From a virus (Duplodnaviria > Caudoviricetes): a stretch of 32,311 nucleotides of DNA. The stretch is from the IMG/VR virus record IMGVR_UViG_3300021560_000046, positions 1 through 32,311 of that record. One strand, written 5' to 3'. The notes under the pieces are model-generated. The model saw nothing but the letters and a program-made list of their open reading frames with translations, made no database searches and was not told the DNA's origin. A program made the position numbers and the translations under genes. How positions within the stretch are numbered: the first letter of the stretch is position 1; each line of letters opens with the position of its first letter. Below are positions 2,542 through 31,342 of this stretch, piece after piece.

Positions 2542-4752
2542 TCAGCCCCTTCCTTCCAGCGCCTCGACTTTAGCCGCCAGCGCCTTCACGGCGTTGATCA
2601 AGGCATAAACGATCGGTGTCGCTTCGATGGTCTTGAGGTGTTCAGTGATTTCCCCGGTGGTCGAGGCCGGATCGACCCACGGCAGCGGCTGAGCCAGGAG
2701 TTCTGGCATCACGTCTTCGATTTCCTCGACCACCAGACCGATATAAGGCCTGCCGTCATCGACATGCCCATACGTCCCATTGAATTCAAACCGGCGTGGG
2801 CGCAGCTTTTTAATCTTTTCGAGGCCGCCATCATAGTCCTCGATATTTTTCTTCAACCGGCCCTCGGAACTGTCGGCCCACATCCCGCCACCCGGTTTGT
2901 AGCCATTGCCGTTATTGGCGACCAAGAAGCCGCCGGGGAAGGAGGCAGACCAGTCGTACCATCCTTGACCAAGCGGTTGTCCATCCGCGGGCCACGACAA
3001 AATCTGCGACTGAAAATAGGCCCCGCCCCATTGCTGGCCGATACGTGTTGACCACCATGTCGGGCAGTAGCCGTTGAGGCCCTGGTAGTTGACAGCACCA
3101 TTGTGCATCTCGATCTGCGAATTATTCCCCGCCATCTGAAAGGAGGTTTGGCAGTACATCGTCCAGCTATGGCAGTCGCCGGAGGAATAAAGATAGCTCG
3201 CAGTGACGTTACCGGCGACATTGCAATGGCCGTTGCTCTGAAGGTAGTTGGTGATCACCGTATTCGATGATGTCTGGTTGTTGCAGTTGAGATTGCCGTT
3301 GACCTGAGTGCTACCATTGGATGTCAGATTGCCATTGACCCCGACATTCGAGGCGAACCACCACGGGTTCGTGACACCAGCCTGACCGCCGCCGCCATCG
3401 TAGATATAGCCCGCCCCGCCGATGTAATAGCCGCCGGAGATATGGACATCCCAGACGTTCCAGAGGCTCTGGTTGCCAAAGGAGGCCCCGCCCGAGGCGA
3501 CATTGATCGAGCCATAGACAGTGAGCCCGTTGTAAACAACTTCGCCATTGTCCACGTAAAGGTTCCCGCCCGCGGTAAAGCTGCCGTAGGCGGTGACATT
3601 GCCGCTTGTGTCAATCTGCCAGCGGATCGCGTGCGCGCTCTCATCGGCAATCGCGTAGTTGCCGTTGTTGAGACAGCCGACTGACCAGTCGCGCGTGCTC
3701 CCCACGATAAAGTGGGTGCGGGCGTAATAGCCGTAATCGGCATAGACTTGAAAGGGATCGTTGCCGCTGGGGATATAGGCGCGGCCCCCAGCCTGCATGT
3801 AGGTATAGCCGTTGACCCATAGCTGACCCAGCGGATTGACATTGCTGTGGAGGTAAACCCAACCGTTGCCGCCGTAGATATGGGCCTCGGTGACCGCCCC
3901 CGCACCGATCTGCAAGACATTGCTTGAGGCGGCAAAGCCCACCACACTGCGCGCGGTCCCGGCGCTGTCGCGGCAGTAGAGATTTTGATTAACGCCGGTA
4001 ACAAAGTTGCCGCTGGACCACAGCGAACCACCCGCGCCGACATCGGCCCAGACTGGGACACCACCGCCAATGTGAATGTTGTTGTCGGAGAGGAAGCCGA
4101 CAATCGGTCTGGGATTGTTCGACGTATCACGTCCGGACCAGTAGATGTTGTTACCCGTCAACGGTGTGCCGTTGATGATGACGTAAGGCGCTGTGCCGTC
4201 GTTGACGTAGACGTTGTTGTCGCTCGATTTGATGATGAGCCCGCGCGGCTGTCCACCGGTATCCTTGGCAAAATACCACGTGTTGTTGGCAAGGACGGTC
4301 GAGATACCGGCCTGGAACTGGATGTTACCAACCATCGTGCCGCCCGCGAGGGGGAGGTAGAGGCCCAAATTCGGGCCTTGCGGGATGAGCGCCAGGACAA
4401 AGGCCGAGAGCGCGTTCTGGAATTCGGTGATCCAGTTGATCTGGCTCCCGTCGTCGGGGACGTAGATATTCGATTGGTTGCTGATCCACTGGCACAGGCT
4501 CGACGCGACAAACGTCCCCTGGCGCAGCGCGCGGTTGTTAAAGGCCGATATCGCCAGACCGGGGAGATTGCCGGTCGCCAGCAAAGGATCGGTAAAATAG
4601 CCGGTCAAGGGCTCGATATTCGCCCCCGCCCCGATCGCCACCGCCTTAAAATCGGTGCCGGGGCCGGCGAGCGGCGTCACGCCATCGGTCAAGGTGGGCA
4701 CGCCGCCTCCGCCGTTGCCGGGAGCCCCGGTGGTGGTGATGATATCGCTCAT
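2542..4752 (-). CDS. tail fibre 3 (baseplate-anchored) with C-terminal Peptidase_S74 intramolecular chaperone
   Basis: The N-terminal 'G...G.A.S...N.ALRQ.TF.AS.L.Q.I' anchor is typical of fibres after DUF2612. G/N/aromatic beta-rich body; C-terminal SEGRLKKNI...LRPRRF...IGLVVEEIE...LINAVKALAAKVEALE. Confidence 0.9.
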   Translation of the reverse strand: MSDIITTTGAPGNGGGGVPTLTDGVTPLAGPGTDFKAVAIGAGANIEPLTGYFTDPLLATGNLPGLAISAFNNRALRQGTFVASSLCQWISNQSNIYVPDDGSQINWITEFQNALSAFVLALIPQGPNLGLYLPLAGGTMVGNIQFQAGISTVLANNTWYFAKDTGGQPRGLIIKSSDNNVYVNDGTAPYVIINGTPLTGNNIYWSGRDTSNNPRPIVGFLSDNNIHIGGGVPVWADVGAGGSLWSSGNFVTGVNQNLYCRDSAGTARSVVGFAASSNVLQIGAGAVTEAHIYGGNGWVYLHSNVNPLGQLWVNGYTYMQAGGRAYIPSGNDPFQVYADYGYYARTHFIVGSTRDWSVGCLNNGNYAIADESAHAIRWQIDTSGNVTAYGSFTAGGNLYVDNGEVVYNGLTVYGSINVASGGASFGNQSLWNVWDVHISGGYYIGGAGYIYDGGGGQAGVTNPWWFASNVGVNGNLTSNGSTQVNGNLNCNNQTSSNTVITNYLQSNGHCNVAGNVTASYLYSSGDCHSWTMYCQTSFQMAGNNSQIEMHNGAVNYQGLNGYCPTWWSTRIGQQWGGAYFQSQILSWPADGQPLGQGWYDWSASFPGGFLVANNGNGYKPGGGMWADSSEGRLKKNIEDYDGGLEKIKKLRPRRFEFNGTYGHVDDGRPYIGLVVEEIEDVMPELLAQPLPWVDPASTTGEITEHLKTIEATPIVYALINAVKALAAKVEALEGRG

Positions 4753-4762
4753 CGTTCTCCCC

Positions 4763-6292
4763 TCACTTCTTTAAGTCCCAGCGAGTGTTGCCGTCGTCCC
4801 AAATCGTGCGCGAGACGATCTGATCGTCCCGTTGCCCAAGGCCGCGCGGCGTCCCTGGTTGGGTGTCCCAAATCGTCCCATAAGCCGGGATGTAGCTGTC
4901 GCCCGGTGTCAGCATCAGCCCCCAGTAGCCGGCATCCCAGCCGTGGACACTGTCGGAAGCGCTATCCCAGGAAAAGAACGGCTCCCCCGGTGTCGGCTGT
5001 AGCGCGTAGGCGCGAAGTTCAATTCCCTCCGGCCGCAAATTCATCTGGCCGGTAGTAAAGAGCGACAACAGGACAATGTCGGGTGTGCTCTCCGAGAGGA
5101 GCCCGTAGAGCATCGTCATGTTGCCGTAGTCTTGGATCACCACTTTGAGGCCGGTGTACTGGAAAAGCGTGTCCCACGCCGCGTAGGCCGAGGGGATGGA
5201 CCCATCCCAGTGGTTGGCAATGACCGTCGCGTAGAGCAAAAGCCGGTAGTGGTAGTCGTCCAGTCGCTGCAACGCGTTGTCGGCGTCCATCGGCCCTTTC
5301 CAGTTGGCTTGGTTCCAACCCAGCCCCTCTGTGTCCCACGAGAAATAGACCGCGGGGAGTTCAATCCAGCGGCTCTTGCCGATCCACTGGCCGGTAAAAT
5401 CCTCTTGCTGCCCGACTGAATAATCCAGATCGAAGAGCCCCGGCAGGCCCGCCGCCAGTTGCTGGTCGCTGATCATCGGATCGACGCTCATCGCCACCGT
5501 CGCCATGTATTTCGGGCGCTGGTTGTGCTCGGAGGTGATCCGGTTGAGATAGTCGAGGGTCGAAAAACTCGGGAATGGGTCGGGATACGGCGGCAGCGGT
5601 TGCTGGATTTCCAGCGGGCCGAACAACAGTTCCAGTTGCGCCGTGATCCGGCCTTCGAGCACCGGATACCACGGCATCACCCGGCGCGACTGGATCAGCG
5701 TTGCCGCCGTGATCCTGCCCGCGAGATTGGCGACGTAGTTGCCAGTGACGCTGGCGAGCCCCGCCTGCGCCTGTCCGCTGATCCGCCCCGAGAGGAAGAG
5801 ATAATCGGGGCTCACGCGGACGCGGACGCGTAGTTGTGCCTGCCCGCTGATCCGCCCGCCAAGGGACACGGCAAACGGCGGCTGTGGCGTATAGGGCAGG
5901 AGCCCTGCCTGCGACCGTCCGGTGATCCGTCCCGCGAGGTCGAGCCTAAACTGCGGCGAGGCGAGCCGCAGCCGCGCCTGCGCGGTGATCCGGCCGTAGA
6001 TCGGCGGGCCAAAGATCAGCGGCGGCGAAAACGGCTTGGCCTGCGCGGTGATATTGCCGCCGAGCCAAGCCCGGTTGGTGTAGAGCCGTAGCCGCGCCTG
6101 CCCGGTGATCCGCCCGGTCAGATAGGTTCTTGCCCAGCGGGCCTGTAGGAACGACTTGGAAAAGATCGTCCCGGTGAGCGGCGGATAAAAAATAAGCGTC
6201 CCGCCCCACGACACGCTGGACGCGGTGATGGTGCCGCCGAGTTCTACGACAACCGGGTCATCTCGGGGCGTGACATCGGGCGGGGCGGCCAT
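4763..6292 (-). CDS. DUF2612 baseplate wedge protein with N-terminal 10-repeat 'rope' extension
   Basis: C-terminal half has YL.RITSEH.Q.PKY, FDLD..VG.Q.D..G.WIG.SR, LDD..YR.LL and V.I.D..NMTM (DUF2612 pattern). N-terminal half has LxGxI(T/S)xQ repeats. Confidence 0.85.
   Translation of the reverse strand: MAAPPDVTPRDDPVVVELGGTITASSVSWGGTLIFYPPLTGTIFSKSFLQARWARTYLTGRITGQARLRLYTNRAWLGGNITAQAKPFSPPLIFGPPIYGRITAQARLRLASPQFRLDLAGRITGRSQAGLLPYTPQPPFAVSLGGRISGQAQLRVRVRVSPDYLFLSGRISGQAQAGLASVTGNYVANLAGRITAATLIQSRRVMPWYPVLEGRITAQLELLFGPLEIQQPLPPYPDPFPSFSTLDYLNRITSEHNQRPKYMATVAMSVDPMISDQQLAAGLPGLFDLDYSVGQQEDFTGQWIGKSRWIELPAVYFSWDTEGLGWNQANWKGPMDADNALQRLDDYHYRLLLYATVIANHWDGSIPSAYAAWDTLFQYTGLKVVIQDYGNMTMLYGLLSESTPDIVLLSLFTTGQMNLRPEGIELRAYALQPTPGEPFFSWDSASDSVHGWDAGYWGLMLTPGDSYIPAYGTIWDTQPGTPRGLGQRDDQIVSRTIWDDGNTRWDLKK
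5618..6244 (-). repeat. 10 degenerate ~20-aa coding repeats, consensus LxGRI(T/S)(A/G)QA
   Basis: LGGTITAS, LTGTIFSK, LTGRITGQ, LGGNITAQ, IYGRITAQ, LAGRITGR, LGGRISGQ, LSGRISGQ, LAGRITAA, LEGRITAQ. Confidence 0.8.
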
Positions 6293-6952
6293 TTACGCAA
6301 GCGAGATATTCAGCGCATTGGCGGGGAATGTCGCCTGGACATTGGCGATGATTTGCTGCGAGGCCACTTTGCGGATCATCCCATCGCCACTGGTCGCGGT
6401 GTTGACGATGATCCCGCCATTGGTAACGGTAAAGGTGTCGGTCAGCGAATTCTGGACCAGCATCGGGCCGGTAAACGAACCGGCGAGGAAGGTCGGCGAC
6501 GTGCCGCCATATTCGTTCGACCACATCACCGTGTCGCCATTGAGATAAGAATGCCGCGGCGCGGTGATGACACCGGGAGACGCAGCGCTGGCGGTCGCGG
6601 GAAGCCACGGGAAATTCCCGAAATAATCCCACGCCAGGAGATTGCCGGCGGTCGCCGCATCATAGAGCCCAAAGGCGATGATCGTGCCCCAGACCGCTGT
6701 CGAATTAGGGAAGACGATCGGATTGTTGTTGGTAATGACACTGGGCGCGGCGGCGGTCGGTGTGGCCCAGTCCGCAGGGAGCGTCGCGACGCGGGCGTAG
6801 GCCCCGCCCGACAATTCGGTAAAGCCGGTGCCGTCATCCGCCCCGGCCGCCGAGAAGAGCGCGATATAAGCCGCGCGCAGCGGGAAGATCGCCGTCTTCC
6901 CGGTGATGTGCCCGAGGAGCCCCGAGGCTGTGTAAGTGGTGAGGCCAGACAT
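6293..6952 (-). CDS. Gp80-like fibre 'bead' protein with inserted beta domain
   Basis: YIALF.A....G....E.SGG.YARV...W......N...I.FP..T..WGTI..FGLYDAATAGNLL, and C-terminal TFPA.AL.ISL, is the widespread Gp80-like pattern; it is split by an ~80-aa insert. Confidence 0.8.
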   Translation of the reverse strand: MSGLTTYTASGLLGHITGKTAIFPLRAAYIALFSAAGADDGTGFTELSGGAYARVATLPADWATPTAAAPSVITNNNPIVFPNSTAVWGTIIAFGLYDAATAGNLLAWDYFGNFPWLPATASAASPGVITAPRHSYLNGDTVMWSNEYGGTSPTFLAGSFTGPMLVQNSLTDTFTVTNGGIIVNTATSGDGMIRKVASQQIIANVQATFPANALNISLA

Positions 6953-6962
6953 TTCCCCTCCT

Positions 6963-8138
6963 CTAAGTCACGGTAATGGTGATCAAGGTCGCATCGGTCG
7001 TCGCCGCCTCGATATAGCTGATCGGCAGATCGTTGGCGGTCGGCGTAAAGCCTTGGCGGGCTTGCTGGACGATCGTCACGTCATAGGTCAGCCCATCAGG
7101 CTCCGGTAACTCGGTCGCCGCGATCAGCTTCGAGATGTAGCTGTCGTAGCCGATCGGCAGCCCCACCAGAAAGGCAACGACTTGCGCGACAAGCTCGTTC
7201 TCGATCGCCTGGGTAAAACCGGCGAGTGCCTTCAGCGTGATGTTGACGACGATCGGCACCAGCGTCAGCGGAAAGAAATTGATCTGGGATGGGATACCGC
7301 GCGGATCGTAAACGATGATCTGGGTGGTGCCGTAAGTCGGGGAACCGGGCGTTTTTCTGAGCGCGATGGCCTGGGCGACAGCCTGGGCGTCGCCGCCCTG
7401 CACCACGCACGCCAGCGAATAAGGCGGGATGCCGTTGGCATCGGGCGCGCTGGTCGGATTTTCGTAGACCATGACACGCTGCACGCCCGCGAGATTTTCG
7501 ATCGCCCCCTGGATGCCCAGCACCACCGTCTGCGATGGGTTGGCAACCGATTGCGTTTGCCGGCGGCGCAGTTGCGCATCGGTCTCGACCGGAGCCCCGA
7601 TCGTGGCCGGCACATCGTTCTCGACCGTCTGCCAGCCGAGGGCCGGCGTCAAAATCTCAGTGATCGTGCCGATATCGGCGGGGATCGCGCCGAGATAGAG
7701 ATTGGTCGCGGTAACGGTGATTTCCCCGTTGTCGGGGATGATGATCCCCGGCGGCAACTGCCACTGAGTTCCCAGATTGAGATTATCCCCCACAACACCG
7801 TTGCCGATGGCCGAGCCGGCCTGCCCGACACAGCGAACGAGGACGGTGCTGACCGAGGCCCGCAAGCGCCGGATGCCGTTGATCTTGACGACGCTACTGA
7901 GCCCGACCCCCTGCGCGTAGGTGGGGCTGTAGGCTTGGTAGGCCGCGGCGACGGTCATGTTGGTATCGTTGATCGCAGAGGCGATCACGGCGATCCACTG
8001 ACCGTCCTGTGTGTCCGGATCGATGTCGATGTCGATCCCGTAAATCGCCCGATACTGGTCCTGCAAATAGGCCAGGACATCGGAGAAGAGCGGGACGTAC
8101 ACGCCGCTCCCGTCGATGATGGTGATCGGAAAGGCCAT
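6963..8138 (-). CDS. baseplate J/gp47-like wedge protein
   Basis: YG.DI..DPDT.DGQW, A.GV.L...V.INGI.R, G...ETDA.LR.R, VYEN.T...DANGIPP.S...VV.GGD. Confidence 0.92.
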   Translation of the reverse strand: MAFPITIIDGSGVYVPLFSDVLAYLQDQYRAIYGIDIDIDPDTQDGQWIAVIASAINDTNMTVAAAYQAYSPTYAQGVGLSSVVKINGIRRLRASVSTVLVRCVGQAGSAIGNGVVGDNLNLGTQWQLPPGIIIPDNGEITVTATNLYLGAIPADIGTITEILTPALGWQTVENDVPATIGAPVETDAQLRRRQTQSVANPSQTVVLGIQGAIENLAGVQRVMVYENPTSAPDANGIPPYSLACVVQGGDAQAVAQAIALRKTPGSPTYGTTQIIVYDPRGIPSQINFFPLTLVPIVVNITLKALAGFTQAIENELVAQVVAFLVGLPIGYDSYISKLIAATELPEPDGLTYDVTIVQQARQGFTPTANDLPISYIEAATTDATLITITVT

Positions 8139-8629
8139 CAGCGCCTCGCGGGTAATCGCTGTAAGAGCGGGGCCGGGGGCATGCGCTGCATCATGGTCGG
8201 CTGTGGCACGACGGCGACGTGGATGGTGGGATGCGCCTGCCCGACTTGGTCGATCGTGATCTGCGCGCGGCCGTAGATCGTGTCGATCGTCGCGTTGACG
8301 ACAAAGCCCCGGCTATCCGGATCGAGCACGCTGTCGTAATCGTTGATCGTGATCACGCCATTGGTCGTCAGGATGCGCTCGCGGATCGCGGCGTCGCGCG
8401 ACAACTGCGTGTGAACACCCAGTATCCGCCCTTGTTGGACCACCAGATCATTGAGGGGAAAACCGCCCCACGGTGTCCCCTCTGATGTGTTGAGAAACCA
8501 TTCGCCGGTAAACAACAAGAGCCGCGTCATCACCGACTGACCCACGCCTTCCGGCTGGTCATGCCAGAAATCCCCAGCGCCGTGGCCGAATTGCATGTCG
8601 CCATCGGCGTCGAGTTTCCGGTAGCGCAT
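8138..8629 (-). CDS. baseplate wedge / sheath initiator (gp25-like)
   Basis: MRYRKLD.DGD..FG...V.Q.V.TRL.LF.GEWFL.T..GTPW...I.ERIL.T.GV...TIDTIYG; located before baseplate J. Confidence 0.85.
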   Translation of the reverse strand: MRYRKLDADGDMQFGHGAGDFWHDQPEGVGQSVMTRLLLFTGEWFLNTSEGTPWGGFPLNDLVVQQGRILGVHTQLSRDAAIRERILTTNGVITINDYDSVLDPDSRGFVVNATIDTIYGRAQITIDQVGQAHPTIHVAVVPQPTMMQRMPPAPLLQRLPARR

Positions 8630-8857: not shown

Positions 8858-9160
8858 TTACCCTTTCCTCTCTGGTGGATTGATGATGCCAAGATCGGCA
8901 AGCTGCATGTCGATATCGGCTTGTTGCTGGACGCACCACGCGCGGGCGCTCGCTAGCATCTCTGGGCTTGCGGTGTCGGCCGGGACGAGGACCGTCAAGG
9001 CAAGCTCGGCCGGCGCTACCTCACCGGCTTCGGCCGGCCGGGGCGACACGGCAAATTGCGAGACATAGCCGCCGGTATCGATCAGCGAGATGATCTGGCT
9101 CACCAGTTCGCGCCGATAGTGCAGCGCCGTGGCCTGCGGCAAATGAGCATATTCGGTCAT
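8858..9160 (-). CDS. fibre-associated small protein, paralog 2
   Basis: ATGA overlap with the fibre 2 stop; clear similarity to 11117-11458. Confidence 0.8.
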   Translation of the reverse strand: MTEYAHLPQATALHYRRELVSQIISLIDTGGYVSQFAVSPRPAEAGEVAPAELALTVLVPADTASPEMLASARAWCVQQQADIDMQLADLGIINPPERKG

Positions 9161-11116: not shown

Positions 11117-11458
11117 TTACTTCTTTGCCGGCGGCGTGGCGCTGGCGAGTGCCGGAGGGGACGTGACACCAAGATCGGTAAGCTGTTGTTCAAGACTGGC
11201 CTGTCGCGTCACCAGCCATGCGCGAAGGTCGGCCATCAGTGTATCCGATGCCGGAGCGTCCAAAGTAATCGTAACCGCCATTGGAAACGCCGTGGTTCCG
11301 ACAGGCGGAGCCGGTTGGATACCCATTGGTGGAGGTGGAGCACCGACTGAGAAGTTTGTCAAAGTGCCACCACTATCAATATTACTGATAGCCTGTTGTG
11401 TACGTTCACATTCACCGTGTAACACATTCACTTGCGGCACATCGGCATAGTCAGTCAT
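11117..11458 (-). CDS. fibre-associated small protein, paralog 1
   Basis: ATGA overlap with the fibre 1 stop; helix-hairpin-helix-like pattern ending QL.DLG...PP. Confidence 0.8.
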   Translation of the reverse strand: MTDYADVPQVNVLHGECERTQQAISNIDSGGTLTNFSVGAPPPPMGIQPAPPVGTTAFPMAVTITLDAPASDTLMADLRAWLVTRQASLEQQLTDLGVTSPPALASATPPAKK

Positions 11459-13857: not shown

Positions 13858-15423
13858 CTAGAACGTCCCACCATCAATGGTAATACCGTCTATGGTCCCG
13901 CCGGTTATCGCGACGGCCGTCGCGTTCTGGGTGGACATCGTCCCGAGGCCGGTGATGTCGGTGTTGGGAATAGTCGCGACGGTGGTAAAGGGATTGGCCG
14001 CATTGGCCTTGAGGTAGCCGGCCGTAAAGGTTGCCGCCCCGCTGCCGCCGCGCGCCACAGTGATCAGCGAGCCGTTCCAAGTCCCGGTTGTGATGGTCCC
14101 GAGCGTGGTGATGCTCGTCTGGCCGACATAGGTCGGGTCGATGGTGATGCCGCTGCCGCCAACCGAGATAAAGCCCGCTACCCCCAGCGCGGTAATGACG
14201 TTGCCCGAGATGGTGATGCCGTTGCCGGCGATGATGTCGGTCGCACCGTTCAACTGGACGAAGGGGATCGTGGTGGTGCCGACAGTGACCGGCGTCGATG
14301 GGTTCGACAGCCACAAGGTGTTGGAATTGACGGTCCCCATCTCGACCGGGACAAACGCGCCGGGGAATTCGGCGCTGCTATCCATATCGACGTTGCGGGT
14401 CAGGATAAACGGCAGCGTGCCGGAACCGACCTGGGTGACGTTGTAAAGCCCGTTCTGCGCCGCCGCGGCTTGGTTCTTGATCAGCACGATGTTGCCGACA
14501 GCGGGCGCGTTACCGTCGATCGAGAGCGCGCCGTTGGCGGTCGCGGTCAGGGTCGCGCCCACACCCGCGGTGCCGTTGGCGTAGGTAACCGCCGGCAATG
14601 CCGCCGCTGTCGCGTACTGCGCCGTAGGCTTGTACTGAACGCCCTGTATCGTTGCATCTACATAGTTTTTCGTCGCCGCGTCTTGCGGATTTGTTGGGTC
14701 GAGGAGGCCGGTGATCTTGTGGCTGCCCCAAGGGACATCGATGTTGGGCGGCTGAAGCTGATCGATACGGGTCGCGAGGACAAACTGCGTGGTCGCGATC
14801 TGGGTGGTGTTGGTCCCGTTGGCGGCGGTCGGCGCGAGGGGCGTACCGTTAAAGCTGGGCGATGTTAGCGTCGCGGCGTTGAGCATCGTCATGACCTGGG
14901 CAACGGTCAGATCGAGCGCGTTCGCGCCCGCGCCGGTATTGTTGCCCTTGAGGCTCATTGTCGGCATCTGCGCAGCGAGCGCGTTGGTGATGCCGTTGGT
15001 CGCGACCGCGATCGTGACGTTGCCGGTGCCGCCGCCGGTCAGGCCGGTGCCGGCGGTGATGTTCGTCACACCGGAACTCACCGCGCTGATCGCGCTCTGG
15101 ACAAAGGCGGTAGTGGCGATCTTGGTTGTGTTGTCGGTCGCGGGCGTGACGGTCGGCGCTGTCGCCGGATGCACGTGGTCGGAGCGCGACCAAGTCCCGT
15201 TTACGCCGGAAACGGCAGTAGCCGCCGGTTGTAAGGGGAGCAAATTTGACGCGAGCCCCTGCCCAGCAATGGCAACGATCGCCGTCGCGTTACCGCTGGA
15301 ATTGCCTTCGCCATAATACAGCGTGTGATCGACTTCGTTGTACGCAAGTTCGGCGTTGGCAAGCCCTGCCGGAGCCCCCGGCGAGCCGGTCAACCGGCGC
15401 TTGACGCGGAGGGTATCAGTCAA
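13858..15423 (-). CDS. fibre/adaptor protein: Mtd_N-like N-terminus, IDGGTF C-terminus
   Basis: TLRVKRR...LANAELAYNEVDHTLYYGEG; fibre motifs SRSDHVH, P.APTA..GTNTTQIATT.FV, DPT.PQDAATKNYVD and VLIKNQ..A.QNG.Y.V. Confidence 0.85.
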   Translation of the reverse strand: MTDTLRVKRRLTGSPGAPAGLANAELAYNEVDHTLYYGEGNSSGNATAIVAIAGQGLASNLLPLQPAATAVSGVNGTWSRSDHVHPATAPTVTPATDNTTKIATTAFVQSAISAVSSGVTNITAGTGLTGGGTGNVTIAVATNGITNALAAQMPTMSLKGNNTGAGANALDLTVAQVMTMLNAATLTSPSFNGTPLAPTAANGTNTTQIATTQFVLATRIDQLQPPNIDVPWGSHKITGLLDPTNPQDAATKNYVDATIQGVQYKPTAQYATAAALPAVTYANGTAGVGATLTATANGALSIDGNAPAVGNIVLIKNQAAAAQNGLYNVTQVGSGTLPFILTRNVDMDSSAEFPGAFVPVEMGTVNSNTLWLSNPSTPVTVGTTTIPFVQLNGATDIIAGNGITISGNVITALGVAGFISVGGSGITIDPTYVGQTSITTLGTITTGTWNGSLITVARGGSGAATFTAGYLKANAANPFTTVATIPNTDITGLGTMSTQNATAVAITGGTIDGITIDGGTF

Positions 15424-16763
15424 AAGTTGCCTCCATCGATCACGTCGTTATTCGCCATAATGACCTGTGTCCAAGCTGCGTTCTGTCTGCCATAACCAAA
15501 GCCGTCTTGCGGGGCCTCTGGTATCCCGCCGCCGCCTCCTCCGCTCCCTGGCGGGCCGGCCGGCCCCGTATCGCCCTTGTCGCCCTTTGGGGCGGTGTTC
15601 GCGATAACCCACTGGACGCTATTTCCGTCGTCAAATCTCACATAGAGCTGACCGCCATTGGTGTCCCACCAAAGAGTTCCGGGGCCTGCGACCGGAGGCA
15701 CGGTCCCCATCGCGACTTGGGCGATGCCATAGCCCTGGTTCTTGACCCACGCCGTCGTCGCAAAATGCGTCGAGCTATCACCCGTCGTCATCGTGACGCC
15801 GGTCGCCTGCCCCAACGCCGTGGTCCCCTGCACTGTCAGATTGCCGGTAATCGTCCCGCCCGCGAGCGGGAGAGCGCCCAAGTTAATCAACGCCTGCGCC
15901 GCGGTCGTCGCGTTGGTGCCGCCATTGGCGATCGTGACCGGGATCGCGAGCGCGATCGTGCCGCTGGTGGTGATCGTCCCGCCCGTGAGCCCGGTGCCCG
16001 CGGTGATGCTGGTCACCGTCCCGCTGCCGCCGCCTCCGCCGCCTCCGCCGCCGCCAATCGGCTGACCATTCTGAAAAAAGCCGCCGGATGCGTCGATTTT
16101 GCCATCCGCCTTGGTATCGCCCGTGATGTGCGTGTTGGGCGAATTGAGCGTGTTGGTGCCGCTCGCCTTCAGCGTGTTGTTCTCGGTGTCGGTGTTAAAG
16201 CCCTTGCCGTTGACCGCGAGCGGATTTTGCGGCGTGGCAAAGGTAAATGTACCGCCCCCAGACGGATTAAAATCCATGTTGGTCTTGCCGTCTGTCGTCC
16301 GCATCTGCCAGCTATTGGCGCTGACATTGGGGAGCGCATTCGGCGTCGAGCGGAAGCCGGGGATAAAGAAGCCGTCCGACAGATCGTGCATCCGGCTCGA
16401 AAACTGGTTTTGCTGCCCGCCTTGCTGGTGCCACAGATCGATCGAGCGGTCGGCAAAGATCGCCAAGCCCTCGTCGCCCTTTTGCACCGGGATGGTGATC
16501 GCCATCCCGCCGCCGCCGAGATAGAGCGTCGGCATGGTCAGCTTGGGGATGGCCTGCCAGCTAACCGTGCCATCCGGTTGCAGGATGGCGGATTTGGTCG
16601 CGACATTGCCGTCTACCGTGTTGCCCTTGGTATCGTGGCTCTCTGCGATGACCGGGGCGGCGACGCGGATCGACGCTTGGTGCATCTCGCGGTTTTGCCG
16701 CAATTGCTCATCCGGCTCGTAATACCGCTCAGAGACATCAAAAACGCCGGCATCGTCGGGCAT
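15420..16763 (-). CDS. baseplate central spike (Gp138-like N-terminal domain) fused to fibre-like C-terminus
   Basis: GGGG..IT.PV.KGDEGL.IFADR.ID.W...G......R.HDLSDGF.IPG (Gp138_N). Followed by a poly-Gly linker, fibre motifs, a short collagen-like run and IDGGNF. Confidence 0.88.
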   Translation of the reverse strand: MPDDAGVFDVSERYYEPDEQLRQNREMHQASIRVAAPVIAESHDTKGNTVDGNVATKSAILQPDGTVSWQAIPKLTMPTLYLGGGGMAITIPVQKGDEGLAIFADRSIDLWHQQGGQQNQFSSRMHDLSDGFFIPGFRSTPNALPNVSANSWQMRTTDGKTNMDFNPSGGGTFTFATPQNPLAVNGKGFNTDTENNTLKASGTNTLNSPNTHITGDTKADGKIDASGGFFQNGQPIGGGGGGGGGGSGTVTSITAGTGLTGGTITTSGTIALAIPVTIANGGTNATTAAQALINLGALPLAGGTITGNLTVQGTTALGQATGVTMTTGDSSTHFATTAWVKNQGYGIAQVAMGTVPPVAGPGTLWWDTNGGQLYVRFDDGNSVQWVIANTAPKGDKGDTGPAGPPGSGGGGGGIPEAPQDGFGYGRQNAAWTQVIMANNDVIDGGNF

Positions 16764-27556: not shown

Positions 27557-28339
27557 CTAACCGGGCGCACCAATCAGATGGATCGGGGCAGAGCCGGCCA
27601 ATCTCAGGTAGTAGAGGAACTGGTTGCCCCACGGCGTGAGGCCCCACCATCCGGCATTCGCTTCCATGCCGATTGAATTGTCATAAGAGAGCGACACGCC
27701 GCCAACGCTCTTCGAGGCGGCGATACCGGAGCCGACAAGCGGTGTGTAGCCGTAGCTACCGCCAGGGCCGGTCACCATTCCTGGGGGGCCGGCTCGCTGT
27801 ACCATCATGTCCGCGACAGCCAAATTGTGCGCCACCCACAGGTTGAGGCCCAAATTGAAAAACTGGCCCCAACGACGCTCATTGAGCGCGTAGGAGATGT
27901 TTGGCGGCGAACAGGCTTGGTTGATCCAATACTGAATTTCCGCGTCTGTAAAGCGGGCTGTGTTGGCGAAGGCCGGGAAGTCGATGCGGAACTGCCCCAC
28001 CGTCATGTAGACATCGGCCGGTTCGGTCGAGGTGCAAAGGAGCGTCGCGCTGTCGGTGAGCACCCGCGTATCCGCGAGCGTCACATCGGCCTGGATGACG
28101 TACATCACGCCGTCGAGCATCTGGCCCAGCATCGCGCTCGTCTTGTTGGTCGAGAAGGTCGGGGGCGCGAGGATGCGGCTCGCCGGATCGGGATCGGGGA
28201 CGGGCGAGGAGGGATCGACCGTAAGGGTCCATATCGCCGTGGTGATCGGGCTCACCAGCGGGCCGATTTGCGCCGTGAAGTCAAAGACAAAGAAATCCGA
28301 TGCCGGGGCCGGCTTGATCGGACCAAATGCGTCTGCCAT
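27557..28339 (-). CDS. fusion: fibre-adaptor-like (Gp77-like) N-terminal domain + DUF4054 head-tail adaptor
   Basis: N-terminal K.....D.F.FDF......I..A.W.......G..Y.I...VT....R.L..S..L; C-terminal FR.DFP.F.....D..I, L.VAH.L, SKSVG.VS.SYD, W..T.WG..F. Confidence 0.8.
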   Translation of the reverse strand: MADAFGPIKPAPASDFFVFDFTAQIGPLVSPITTAIWTLTVDPSSPVPDPDPASRILAPPTFSTNKTSAMLGQMLDGVMYVIQADVTLADTRVLTDSATLLCTSTEPADVYMTVGQFRIDFPAFANTARFTDAEIQYWINQACSPPNISYALNERRWGQFFNLGLNLWVAHNLAVADMMVQRAGPPGMVTGPGGSYGYTPLVGSGIAASKSVGGVSLSYDNSIGMEANAGWWGLTPWGNQFLYYLRLAGSAPIHLIGAPG

Positions 28340-30645
28340 TAGGCCGCTCTCCTGACCGCTGGGACCACTACAACGCGCTGGCTGTCATTGCCCCCCACCA
28401 CGCGATTACCCGCACCGTTGCCCGCCACACGGCCGCTGGGAGGGGCTGTAGCGACACGGTCGTATTGCTCATAGGTCTGCCGGTCATACGGCACGTCCGG
28501 TATCTCGCCCGGTATGCCGGCGGCCGAGTTTGCGGCGTGGACCGCGCCCGTGAGCACCATGACATCGATCGGTTCGGTCGCGACCAGTGTGCCGGTGCCG
28601 TAGATGCCACCGGCCAGATTGGCGGTGTCCGCCGCTTCGACCGCGTCGAGGACGCCGTTGTCGATGACGCCGCCGGCCAGGGACGCGTGATCGGGATTGT
28701 CGTTGGCGGCGAGCGTCGCCTGCCATGCGACGCCGCCGACAAACGATGTCGTGTCAGGGATATCAGTCGCCGCCAGGATACCGGCGACGCCGGTCACGCT
28801 ACCCGCGACCGTCGCCCCATCGATCGGGTCGGTCGCGCCGAGCGTCCCGCCCAGCCCCGAGAGCACTTGGCCCGCCAACGCCAGCGTGTCGCGGGCGTCG
28901 GTGAGCGCAAAGGAACCGCTGACATTGGTAAAGACGGTGCCCGCGACAGTGGCGGTATCGACCGGATCGGTTGCCGCCAGCGCGGCGTTCCACCGGATGG
29001 TGCCACTAAGACTGGCGGCATCGCGGTTGTCGGTTGTCGCCAGTGCCGCCAGCCACGCGATCGTGCCCGCAACACCTCCGGTATCGACCGGATCGGTCGC
29101 GGCCAGGACACATGTCCAGGCCACAAGTCCTGCAATGGCCGCCACGTCCACGTGGTCGGCGGCGGCCAGCGCTCCGGCAATCCCGGTAACCTGACCGGCC
29201 GCGGCGGCCGTATCGACCGGATCGGTCGCCGCCAGCGTCCCGCCTACGCCCGAGAGCACCGAGCCGCCAACATTGGCAGCATCGATGCTGTCGGTTGCTG
29301 CCAGCGTGCCGCTGAGCGCAATCAGCACCGTCCCAGCGAGTGCTGCCGCGTCGAGGGGATCGGCCGCCGCCAGTGCGGCTTGCCATGCCACGCCCCCGGT
29401 GAGCGCCGCGGTATCCCGCTGATCAGTGGCGGCCAGCGTGGCCGCCCAACTAACTTGACCGGCGAAACTACCGCTATCGATGAGGTCGGTACACGCCAGC
29501 GTACCGAGCCATGCCACAGTGGCGCTCAAGCTGGCAGCATCGATCGGATCGGTTGCTGCCAGGGTGCCGGTGGGCAGGACGACCAAATTGCCGGTGAGCG
29601 CCGCGACATCGACCGGATCGGTCGCGACCAGCGTGCCTGTGGCATAGATGCCGCCCGTGATGGCAGCCACATCTAGCGGGTCGGTGGTGGCTAGAGTTGC
29701 CTGCCAGACGATGGTGCCGGAGATGGTGGCACCATCTACGGGATCGGTTGCTGCCAGCGTCCCGGTGAGGCCGGTATCGACGACGGTCCCGGCCATCGCG
29801 CCGGTATCGACAACGTCGGTCGCTGCCAACGGGCCGATAAGGTCGGCAGTGCCGGTAATCGCTGCCGTGTCGATTGGATCGGTCGCCGCCAGCGGGCCGA
29901 TAAGGTCGGCAGTGCCGGTAATCGCTGCCGTATCGACGTGGTCGGTCGATGCCAACGGCCCGGTGACGATGTCTTGATAGTTCGGCGTCGTGAAGTTGCA
30001 GGCCGAGATATAGAATTTGGCGTCGCAGCTATTGGAACCGCCCGCCGTCGTAGTAATCCACTCTAAGGCAAGGAAAAGATATTCGTTGTTTAGCGTTATG
30101 GCCGGTGCGGCCCAGGTGTAGGTCGAGTTATAGGTTGTCGTCGTTGTCGCCAGCGAGATCGTCGTCGCCTGGACAGCGCCGGTTGTCAGTTCCCGCGCGC
30201 CCGAGCCCGTCTGGTTAGTCGAGGCATAGACGCGCAGCCGCATCGCCCCGGCCTGGGACGACGAAGTCGTGCAGCGCATGCCAAAGGTGAAGACCCAGTT
30301 GCCGGAAACAAAATTGCCGGTATAGGCACTCGCCGATGAGAAGGTATTTCCAGCGGTTGTCGCGCCGTTGCCGGTGCCGACACGCAGACCGGAGGTAAGA
30401 TACGAGGTGGTCGATGAAGTGGTGCCTGCCGCCGTCGCACCGAGATAGGCGTTAAAGTAGGTAGAGGCGGATGTCTTGGCGACGGTCCAGCCAAAGGTGG
30501 AAACGACGGCTGTCGGCGCGGTGCCGCCGTCTTGCAGCGAGCCGTTCCAATCCGGCGTCGTCGCCGTCGTGTTGAGGACATAAAAGGTTTTGGGAGCCGG
30601 GGCCGCTAGGGGCTCGATGGCTAGGGGCTCGATGCCGTCAAACAT
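28339..30645 (-). CDS. 768-aa 'rope'-type fibre protein: Thr/Ser-rich N-terminal domain + 22 repeats
   Basis: Repeats GxLAATDxxDxAAxxGxV; C-terminal RVVVVPAVRR; located in the head/neck gene block. Confidence 0.85.
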   Translation of the reverse strand: MFDGIEPLAIEPLAAPAPKTFYVLNTTATTPDWNGSLQDGGTAPTAVVSTFGWTVAKTSASTYFNAYLGATAAGTTSSTTSYLTSGLRVGTGNGATTAGNTFSSASAYTGNFVSGNWVFTFGMRCTTSSSQAGAMRLRVYASTNQTGSGARELTTGAVQATTISLATTTTTYNSTYTWAAPAITLNNEYLFLALEWITTTAGGSNSCDAKFYISACNFTTPNYQDIVTGPLASTDHVDTAAITGTADLIGPLAATDPIDTAAITGTADLIGPLAATDVVDTGAMAGTVVDTGLTGTLAATDPVDGATISGTIVWQATLATTDPLDVAAITGGIYATGTLVATDPVDVAALTGNLVVLPTGTLAATDPIDAASLSATVAWLGTLACTDLIDSGSFAGQVSWAATLAATDQRDTAALTGGVAWQAALAAADPLDAAALAGTVLIALSGTLAATDSIDAANVGGSVLSGVGGTLAATDPVDTAAAAGQVTGIAGALAAADHVDVAAIAGLVAWTCVLAATDPVDTGGVAGTIAWLAALATTDNRDAASLSGTIRWNAALAATDPVDTATVAGTVFTNVSGSFALTDARDTLALAGQVLSGLGGTLGATDPIDGATVAGSVTGVAGILAATDIPDTTSFVGGVAWQATLAANDNPDHASLAGGVIDNGVLDAVEAADTANLAGGIYGTGTLVATEPIDVMVLTGAVHAANSAAGIPGEIPDVPYDRQTYEQYDRVATAPPSGRVAGNGAGNRVVGGNDSQRVVVVPAVRRAA
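28531..29961 (-). repeat. 22 coding repeats of 21-24 aa (63-72 bp)
   Basis: Counted from GPLASTDHVD to GTLVATEPID; a 39-bp exact DNA duplication occurs at 29830-29868 and 29893-29931. Confidence 0.9.
30605..30634. repeat. 15-bp tandem duplication (IEPLA x2)
   Basis: GCTAGGGGCTCGATG twice. Confidence 0.8.
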
Positions 30646-30928
30646 CGACCCACTCCCATTTGTAGGAACAGGACGGACAGTGCGCGACGTGCGATGGCTG
30701 GGTCGGCCACACGTTGCAGCCGCTCAGATAATAGGGATCGGTGCCGTGGCCCAGGCATGCCGAAAGCCCGTCTGTTGATTTAAAAGTCAACAGCGGGCAC
30801 ATCCCTTCGCGTTCTGGCTTTTGTCGCATCAATTCCGAGCGGCGCGGGTCGTCCTCGCCATGCGGGAACGGATCACCGATACAGCATTCACCACATCGGT
30901 TGCATTCGCCGTGGCGCTGCCACGGCAT
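30638..30928 (-). CDS. YkgJ-like CxxCxxCC cysteine-cluster (Zn/Fe-chelating) protein
   Basis: CNRCGECC ... CPLL ... C ... C..WP ... CPSC. Confidence 0.78.
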   Translation of the reverse strand: MPWQRHGECNRCGECCIGDPFPHGEDDPRRSELMRQKPEREGMCPLLTFKSTDGLSACLGHGTDPYYLSGCNVWPTQPSHVAHCPSCSYKWEWVDV

Positions 30929-30931
30929 GGA

Positions 30932-31342
30932 TCACCCGTGAGTTAATGTGCCAGCCGTGATCGTGACGGTCTGGCCGCTGGTGATCGAGGTGCTGTTCAG
31001 ATTGATATCGGAGCCTGACGTGCCCACGGTCAAACCGCTGATCACCGTGGTCCCGGCGTTGTTGCGGAATTCCGCCAAGGCGGCGGTCCCGGTCGCGGAC
31101 GCGGTCGCGGAGAGCGGCACGCCTTGCAGTGTCGCCACCGCACCGGAGACAGTAAACGCCGTGGCGGGGAGCGCGATCGTCGCGAGCACGCCGGTCGCCC
31201 CGGCGAGCGCCGCCGTACCGATCACAAGCTGGCCCGCCGTTGCGGTCCCGGTCGCCGCCGCTGGTGTTCGGCTGGCGATGACATCAGCCATGACTTGCAT
31301 GCGGGGTGTTTTTACCGTCGCGGTAGCATAGGTGACCGTCAT
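30932..31342 (-). CDS. Ala/Thr-rich virion protein, probable fibre 'bead' subunit (Gp80-like)
   Basis: L.I.T......VLA.I.L....F....G...L......A.ATGTA..A......G......LTVGTSG.D..L..T.I..GQTV.IT..T.TH; lies upstream of the rope gene. Confidence 0.75.
   Translation of the reverse strand: MTVTYATATVKTPRMQVMADVIASRTPAAATGTATAGQLVIGTAALAGATGVLATIALPATAFTVSGAVATLQGVPLSATASATGTAALAEFRNNAGTTVISGLTVGTSGSDINLNSTSITSGQTVTITAGTLTHG

Follow-up and report, generated by a model that had tools for sequence, protein, structure and literature searches.

The DNA analysed here, referred to as the window, is the whole of virus record IMGVR_UViG_3300021560_000046 (32,311 nt; completeness estimate 29 %). Its minus strand encodes an E217/Pam3-like contractile tail module, with sheath, tube, tape measure, hub, spike and baseplate genes and three fibres carrying S74 chaperones. 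The subject of the analysis is a pair of adjacent baseplate genes in this module, one for a 219-amino-acid (aa) Gp80-like protein, here called the bead, and one for a 509-aa protein in which a repeat array, here called the rope, precedes a baseplate wedge domain. In minus-strand order, the features of the locus are as follows.

8138 to 8629, minus strand: baseplate wedge subunit (phrog_120, expectation value (E) 2e-22)
6963 to 8138, minus strand: baseplate J/wedge 2 (PF04865 E 2e-8; phrog_6 E 1e-47), directly upstream of the bead gene
6293 to 6952, minus strand: putative bead subunit, type A, 219 aa (PF23140 E 1e-22; fold match to 8jou_a)
6356 to 6619, minus strand: inserted FCCH-like beta-barrel of the bead, aa 112–199 (fold match with middling Z score)
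4763 to 6292, minus strand: rope-wedge fusion protein, 509 aa (open reading frame with DUF2612 match)
5621 to 6241, minus strand: rope of ten type-A repeats, aa 18–224 (motif and profile matches; 23 lysine/arginine and 4 aspartate/glutamate residues)
6203–6241, 6140–6178, 6083–6121, 6026–6064 and 5963–6001, minus strand: 13-aa cores of repeats 1–5
5900–5938, 5825–5863, 5756–5794, 5687–5725 and 5621–5659, minus strand: 13-aa cores of repeats 6–10
5558 to 5620, minus strand: proline-rich linker from rope to wedge domain, aa 225–245 (from the sequence; conserved in relatives)
4898 to 5584, minus strand: baseplate wedge 3 (T4 gp7-like) domain, DUF2612, aa 237–465 (profile and fold matches)
2542 to 4752, minus strand: S74 chaperone-bearing tail fibre, encoded downstream of the wedge gene (profile matches)

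Both open reading frames were confirmed at the positions given in an earlier note on this DNA, which was made from the sequence alone, and a Gp80-like gene does lie between baseplate J and the DUF2612 gene as described there. That these two genes are normally adjacent, as the note also held, was borne out by loci with ropeless wedges, in which the end of baseplate J lay at most 104 bases from the start of the wedge domain in 46 of 47 cases; the remaining locus did not include baseplate J. The 219-aa bead gene has a strong Shine-Dalgarno-like site, and its stop codon abuts the start of the 509-aa gene. From its size and position, the 8138–8629 product is likely a gp25-like sheath initiator.

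The DUF2612 match (PF11041) covered aa 248–425 of the 509-aa protein with E 2e-38, and profile matches of the wedge domain included 9zd7 gp89 (E 4e-8), XM1 gp17 (E 1e-3) and Pam3 gp23 (E 0.12). In fold comparison, the model of residues 237–465 was aligned to residues 1–234 of the Pam3 gp23 chain (Z 11.2, root-mean-square deviation (rmsd) 12.7 Å over 216 residues), and the fold was also matched in XM1, phiTE, Pa193, Bas63 and 812, with alignments mostly beginning at the first residues of these proteins. Both the core-bundle helix and the trifurcation fold of gp7-like wedge 3 proteins were found, and the gene lies between those for baseplate J and a tail fibre. As modelled, the 509-aa protein is a gp7-like baseplate wedge 3, and since its wedge part aligns mostly from the first residues of known wedge proteins, the repeats are an N-terminal addition. 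Literature on bead chains and wedges used for comparison includes PMC10811340, PMC13433997, PMC12796354, bioRxiv 2021.12.18.469577 and PMC11972413. In XM1 and Milano, the N-terminal helices of wedge 3 form a core bundle capped by the sheath initiator, and for this reason the rope should leave the wedge near the first sheath ring.

The ten repeats begin at aa 18, 39, 58, 77, 98, 119, 144, 167, 190 and 212, with only 17 residues before the first and a spacing of 19–25 residues (mean 21.6). A motif read off the 509-aa sequence matched 10 times, whereas 20,000 shuffled sequences averaged 0.08 matches and never exceeded 3; a profile built from relatives only recovered all ten window repeats, none in the DUF2612 part and at most one in 100 shuffles. 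The ten N-terminal repeats reported earlier are thus real, whereas the exact motif proposed for them, LxGxI(T/S)xQ, fits only five. A more accurate description of the unit is an alternating strand of 13 residues, [LI]xGxIx[AGS]x[SA]x[AL]x[L], followed by a spacer of 6–12 residues that is often rich in proline. Even positions of the strand are small or hydrophobic and odd positions are R/T/Q/S, and no conserved turn interrupts this in/out alternation, which is continuous over the 13 residues. When a pseudo-palindrome was looked for with a reversed profile, the window rope gave one reverse match and GP4 none, which is not convincing. Across 45 wedge proteins, the number of repeats ranged from 3 to 20 profile matches; close relatives differed several-fold, with baseplate genes 61–82 % identical to those of the window. 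The rope alone had no match in any cultured phage, and in the ESM Atlas it returned only scores of 0.80 or less, which are leads at best. A literature search that lacked subscription journals found no report of DUF2612 with an N-terminal rope.

The 219-aa protein was matched to Gp80 (PF23140) over aa 4–109 (E 1e-22; 80.9 bits against a curated cut-off of 27). Searching the PDB with the single sequence gave only a chance match (E 0.42), whereas a profile built from 121 sequences, which was needed for detection, matched gp80 of GP4 (8jou_a) at E 1.2e-5. The AlphaFold2 model of the bead, with a predicted local distance difference test score (pLDDT) of 92.9, had 8jou_a as its top match among 48,161 chains (model residues 3–217; Z 16.1, rmsd 1.8 Å, 128 of 136 residues), and the N-terminal helix and incomplete beta-sandwich of gp80 are both present in the model. 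Similarity to the neck chains of Sf14 (Z 8.0) and Bas63 (Z 7.8) was lower, and a weak match (Z 4.9, rmsd 4.4 Å over 103 residues) was to a 176-residue 812 chain of unchecked identity. The family core consists of aa 1–111 and 200–219, split by an 88-residue barrel that most resembles the FCCH domain of the ubiquitin E1 enzyme Uba1 (Z 8.3, rmsd 2.3 Å over 73 residues) and also the T1 tail-tube N-domain (Z 7.6) and an endosialidase barrel (Z 7.0). On this model, the 219-aa protein is a bead of the GP4 gp80 family with an inserted beta-barrel.

To compare the distribution of rope and bead, the best 80 of 120 wedge loci were scored for type-A repeats on the wedge and for a bead gene of the same type in the gap between baseplate J and the wedge. 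Rope A occurred with bead A in 32 loci, a different rope with a different bead (type B, described below) in one, and neither in 47, with no discordant locus; clustering at 90 % identity gave 14, 1 and 30, respectively. In this set, the rope was always accompanied by a bead. In a quick tree of 61 wedges, 49 of them rope-bearing, all 49 formed one clade with a Shimodaira–Hasegawa-like approximate likelihood ratio test support of 99.

Two further independent lines of observation indicate that rope and bead belong together. Bead A was found in 31 loci, of which 14 lie away from this baseplate, and in eight of these 14 the protein encoded downstream carried phased type-A repeats, some with only two, compared with none of 12 control loci. 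The other line is a joint replacement of both components. In locus L063, the slot between baseplate J and the wedge is filled by a 124-aa phrog_3758 protein and the wedge (4619–6425 of that locus) carries acidic repeats of another pattern. Locus L064 (wedge at 1–1976) has the same type of rope and, on inspection by eye, the end of that bead; the two wedges carry about 11 and 17 units. Three wedges with type-B ropes form a clade nested among the type-A wedges in the quick tree, and the wedge P0143 carries type-B and then type-A repeats, pointing to a possible two-bead fibre. No PF23140 match was found in five records with ropeless or type-B wedges, of which four are incomplete and for which the built-in controls likewise gave no match.

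Bead relatives were also observed in other settings. The 219-aa bead occurs in phages with other tail types (L018–L025 and L077), where the next gene encodes about 500 aa and is itself followed by one for a short carrier that has conserved end motifs and bears two to five type-A repeats. Longer beads of 285–328 aa with a further insertion are encoded in L026 (5001–5861), L027 (4578–5435) and L080–L082, and in L027 and L028 a bead gene lies amid head and neck genes beside a gene for an 847-aa protein in which a glycine-rich domain is combined with a long array of repeats. All six bacterial genome loci in which bead relatives were found are from Alphaproteobacteria, which hints at this class as the host group of these phages. 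Apparent long wedge extensions in L107, L133, L139, L144, L147 and L148 overlap baseplate J and were rejected as start-codon artefacts.

The window itself encodes a second set of this kind near the neck genes, comprising the following features.

30932 to 31342, minus strand: putative type-B bead, 136 aa (phrog_3758 E 1e-12; PDB 9rkv_A E 2.4e-5)
30638 to 30928, minus strand: cysteine-rich small open reading frame, 96 aa, beginning CxxCxxCC and with further cysteines; counterparts at L075 1813–2181 and L076 1836–2144
28339 to 30645, minus strand: putative type-B rope, 768 aa, with an N-terminal domain of about 225 aa and about 22 acidic 21-aa repeats
27557 to 28339, minus strand: head-tail connector bearing an additional N-terminal domain of 105 aa (DUF4054; E217 connector E 1e-4 over aa 116–249)

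The type-B rope gave 20 pattern matches at a spacing of 21–24 with one double gap, and its autocorrelation peaks at 21. It is acidic (4 lysine/arginine and 49 aspartate/glutamate residues), in contrast to the basic rope A. The chain matched by the type-B bead, 9rkv_A, is a 141-residue protein present in four chains of the 7-7-1 tail-fibre model 9RKV, which includes the garland; we take it as the 7-7-1 garland protein, which would make the type-B bead a garland relative. A type-B bead was also found in two of five relatives searched. The cysteine-rich frame, which lies between the genes for the type-B bead and rope in the window, L075 and L076, had no Pfam or PHROG family match in its window copy and is possibly metal-binding. 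The same type-B gene set, with far fewer repeats, was observed in L075. As a guess, the connector may be the anchor of the type-B rope; its extra N-terminal domain gave no alignment to the 93-aa GP4 tail protein with which it was compared. Read from sequence, each of two bead families is paired with its own readable repeat code in this one genome; together with the swap seen on the same type of anchor in L063, this natural system of two beads and two codes is the most useful new element.

The repeat array with its bead gene is a real and conserved feature, and, taken together, we consider it probable (roughly 0.8) that the wedge with its ten-repeat rope is threaded by the 219-aa bead as dimers, probably one dimer per repeat. 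The bead fold, the strict co-occurrence with co-replacement and a weak pass in complex prediction support the bead-on-rope reading. Several results weigh against it. Since the rope-bearing wedges form a single clade, the co-occurrence table represents one gain and one swap rather than 45 independent events and is weak by itself, and phased type-A repeats are absent from six of the 14 bead loci outside the baseplate. Among 50,697 records, no cultured phage was found that has the full arrangement, judged on full-length proteins. The type-A profile does not match the candidate rope of GP4, and the five dimers of GP4 remain unexplained next to the 11 units of that candidate, whose identity as a rope is itself presumed from its position. 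When two beads were modelled with rope residues 163–204, the score was 0.36 compared with 0.02 for the best of three controls; of the reference pairs, 116 of the 157 solved ones and 2 of the 215 mismatched ones attain the mark applied, but with scores of 0.60 or under in 18 of the 157 solved pairs and in both mismatches. The runs had at least 4 % of contacts in common and a partner pLDDT of at least 39. The earlier note had expected beta-strand complementation in such a prediction; the score did exceed the controls, but the pass is weak and came without a returned interface, and likeness to solved complexes may contribute to it.

The remaining result on that side concerns the rope alone and bears on a different reading, that it folds by itself as a single-chain beta-helix and forms a spike on the wedge, while the Gp80-like protein binds elsewhere or caps the spike. 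This was named in the earlier note as the outcome that would overturn the threaded arrangement, and AlphaFold2 does predict it at low confidence: in the model of the lone 509-aa protein the rope is folded in a beta-helix-like manner with two strands per repeat, and right-handed beta-helix proteins were matched at Z 9–12.5, with Awp1 the closest (Z 12.5, rmsd 3.0 Å over 193 residues, 9 % identity). The region has a pLDDT of only 38–65, however, and identities to the matched proteins are 3–13 %. A solenoid is also difficult to reconcile with a 13-residue alternation that lacks a conserved turn and with spacers that are irregular in length (6–12 residues) and in many cases rich in proline. Where only two to four repeats are encoded beside the same bead, the array would be short for a free solenoid, and the joint change of rope type and bead type is left unexplained. 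The free-standing spike is accordingly considered very improbable.

With respect to stoichiometry, it was proposed earlier that ten repeats would suit five dimers, a count that would mean each monomer taking one whole repeat. GP4 offers some basis for this count, as five gp80 dimers are reported for its fibre (PMC13730344) and the gene after gp80, the candidate rope, has about 11 units of period 20. The candidate has no sequence match in the PDB, however, so that its identity and register are unproven, and other ropes give a different figure. In A1002, 11 dimers, seven of gp40 and then four of gp41, are described on a fibre-dock domain centred on residues 243–468, or about 226 residues (PMC13730344; the word 'repeat' is absent from its main text). 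KPP25, of the same genus, encodes proteins of 620, 147 and 171 aa in a row, and its ORF005 (L073 7852–9714) was read by eye, over the same stretch, as seven units of one pattern followed by four of another at a spacing of about 20 residues, which correspond in order to the seven and four dimers of A1002. Likewise, two Bas63 dimers occupy a collar N-terminus of at most 51 residues by cysteine numbering (PMC12609058), and odd repeat numbers occur in relatives of the window wedge. Because the A1002/KPP25 and Bas63 ropes hold about one dimer per 20 residues, this calibration makes one dimer per repeat, and about ten per wedge rather than five, the more likely arrangement; five dimers on ten repeats appears improbable.

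Under the threaded arrangement, bead A would dimerize as its solved relatives do (by way of the N-terminal helices in the Gp80 family), each 13-residue strand would run through the grooves of a dimer and complete its open beta-sandwiches, and the spacer would act as a hinge between neighbouring dimers. The rope would exit at the N-terminal core bundle beside the sheath initiator by way of the proline-rich linker. With about ten dimers per wedge there would be six beaded fibres per virion and up to 120 bead copies, and each fibre would be roughly 27–72 nm long (for assumed values of rise), compared with a tail of about 137 nm. The repeat sequence might serve as an address, the basic type-A rope at the wedge and the acidic type-B rope near the neck each receiving its own bead.

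For the function of these fibres, both adhesion to lipopolysaccharide and bracing have been proposed in solved bead fibres. Through the repeated barrels, the chains would bind polysaccharide of the host surface reversibly and multivalently, ahead of the three fibres that bear chaperones, and we give reversible multivalent adhesion about even odds; it is favoured by the range of lengths among close relatives (3 to 20 profile matches) and by the outward barrel that each bead adds. As the main alternative, threaded chains of the same composition might act as a brace or garland, packing on the sheath or wrapping folded fibres and so stabilizing the extended tail. The whiskers of Bas63, for which a role as anchors is proposed, touch the sheath, terminator and capsid (PMC12609058), the 7-7-1 and Milano garlands envelop fibre tips, the type-B bead that is able to replace bead A is a putative garland relative, and the bead barrel also resembles a tail-tube outer domain. 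Several-fold length variation among phages with such similar baseplate genes would suit a free fibre better than a fitted ring, and a bracing role is judged somewhat unlikely. A more elaborate proposal is that two orthogonal address codes sort the two beads to two virion sites, being swappable and mixable on the wedge, and that six barrel-studded chains of adjustable length serve as feelers that pull on the wedge and help to trigger contraction; this is speculative, and we regard it as unlikely.

Other genes of the window may also contribute to its fibres. Three related small unannotated proteins (1877–2539, 8858–9160 and 11117–11458, minus strand) are each encoded directly after an S74-bearing fibre gene and are likely fibre assembly or tip partners. 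The spike gene region (13858–16763, minus strand) includes a spike gene whose C-terminal extensions are fibre-like, and an N-terminal motif is shared by the two genes that follow the spike (521 and 800 aa), so a branched fibre set may hang from this region.

Among known systems, GP4 Fiber I of a Ralstonia podophage (PDB 8JOU; described through PMC13730344 and PMC12609058) has a bead of the same family and fold, and its gene with 20-residue repeats lies directly after the bead gene, as at the wedge locus of the window. It differs in that the rope is a separate protein docked on a podophage tail adaptor, the 140-aa bead has no barrel and the repeat sequence is another. The bead-and-rope class is recognized by a linked rope with alternating-strand units of about 20 residues, and such a rope is present here. 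In A1002 the nozzle-rope protein gp39 with gp40 and gp41 (PMC13730344) likewise fuses the rope to a six-fold tail part at about 20 residues per dimer, and, like the window phage, A1002 has two bead proteins; however, the anchor is a podophage nozzle and both beads share one rope, whereas the two bead types of the window have separate ropes and sites. The collar-whiskers of Bas63 and Sf14 (PMC12609058) are also found in myophages and also combine GP4-like bead dimers with a rope that is an N-terminal extension of a structural protein, but they are anchored at the neck collar in 12 copies with two dimers each, and the bead has 110 aa.

The earlier note knew of no baseplate-integral bead chain in a myophage, and this does not hold, as the arms of A511 and 812 and the garlands of Milano and 7-7-1 are already published. 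The Milano (gp125/gp127) and 7-7-1 (gp014; PDB 9RKV) garlands also place bead dimers at a myophage baseplate; they surround fibre tips, and their string is not identified in those papers, whereas the string of the window is part of the wedge. In A511, three bead-like gp105 dimers are arranged along an extended chain of wedge 3 (PMC10811340), and in 812, six arm-segment gp118 dimers lie on the arm scaffold gp117 (PMC13433997). Both resemble the arrangement proposed for the window in that the gp7-like wedge 3 protein provides an extended chain on which dimers are strung through beta-sheet completion, with six chains per baseplate. Their string is, however, C-terminal of the wedge module (in 812 the N-terminal 176 residues, which align to aa 243–360 of the 509-aa protein), contains folded domains and docking loops and bears receptor-binding proteins, and their beads are gp8-like; the likeness of the 176-residue 812 chain to the window bead is weak. 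The window string is N-terminal (aa 18–224) and a plain repeat array, and in these two respects it departs from the A511/812 arms. The window arrangement would work like known bead chains but is not an A511/812 arm: its N-terminal string lacks docking domains, and its bead belongs to the GP4 family and carries an additional barrel.

The bead-on-rope principle has already been solved in several phages, and the surprise is correspondingly moderate. If the threaded arrangement is correct, it would represent a length-tunable and genetically fused display fibre on a myophage baseplate, of interest to phage structural biologists, and its two beads and two codes would provide a small two-by-two system for bead-rope specificity and stoichiometry. 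The repeat pattern could further be used to look for the string of the Milano and 7-7-1 garlands. Compared with these systems, what appears new here is an N-terminal rope on a minimal wedge, beads that bear barrels, variable length and two exchangeable bead-rope codes, consistent with a minimal contractile tail whose core wedge has acquired a bead-and-rope module, at the opposite side from the arms of A511 and 812.

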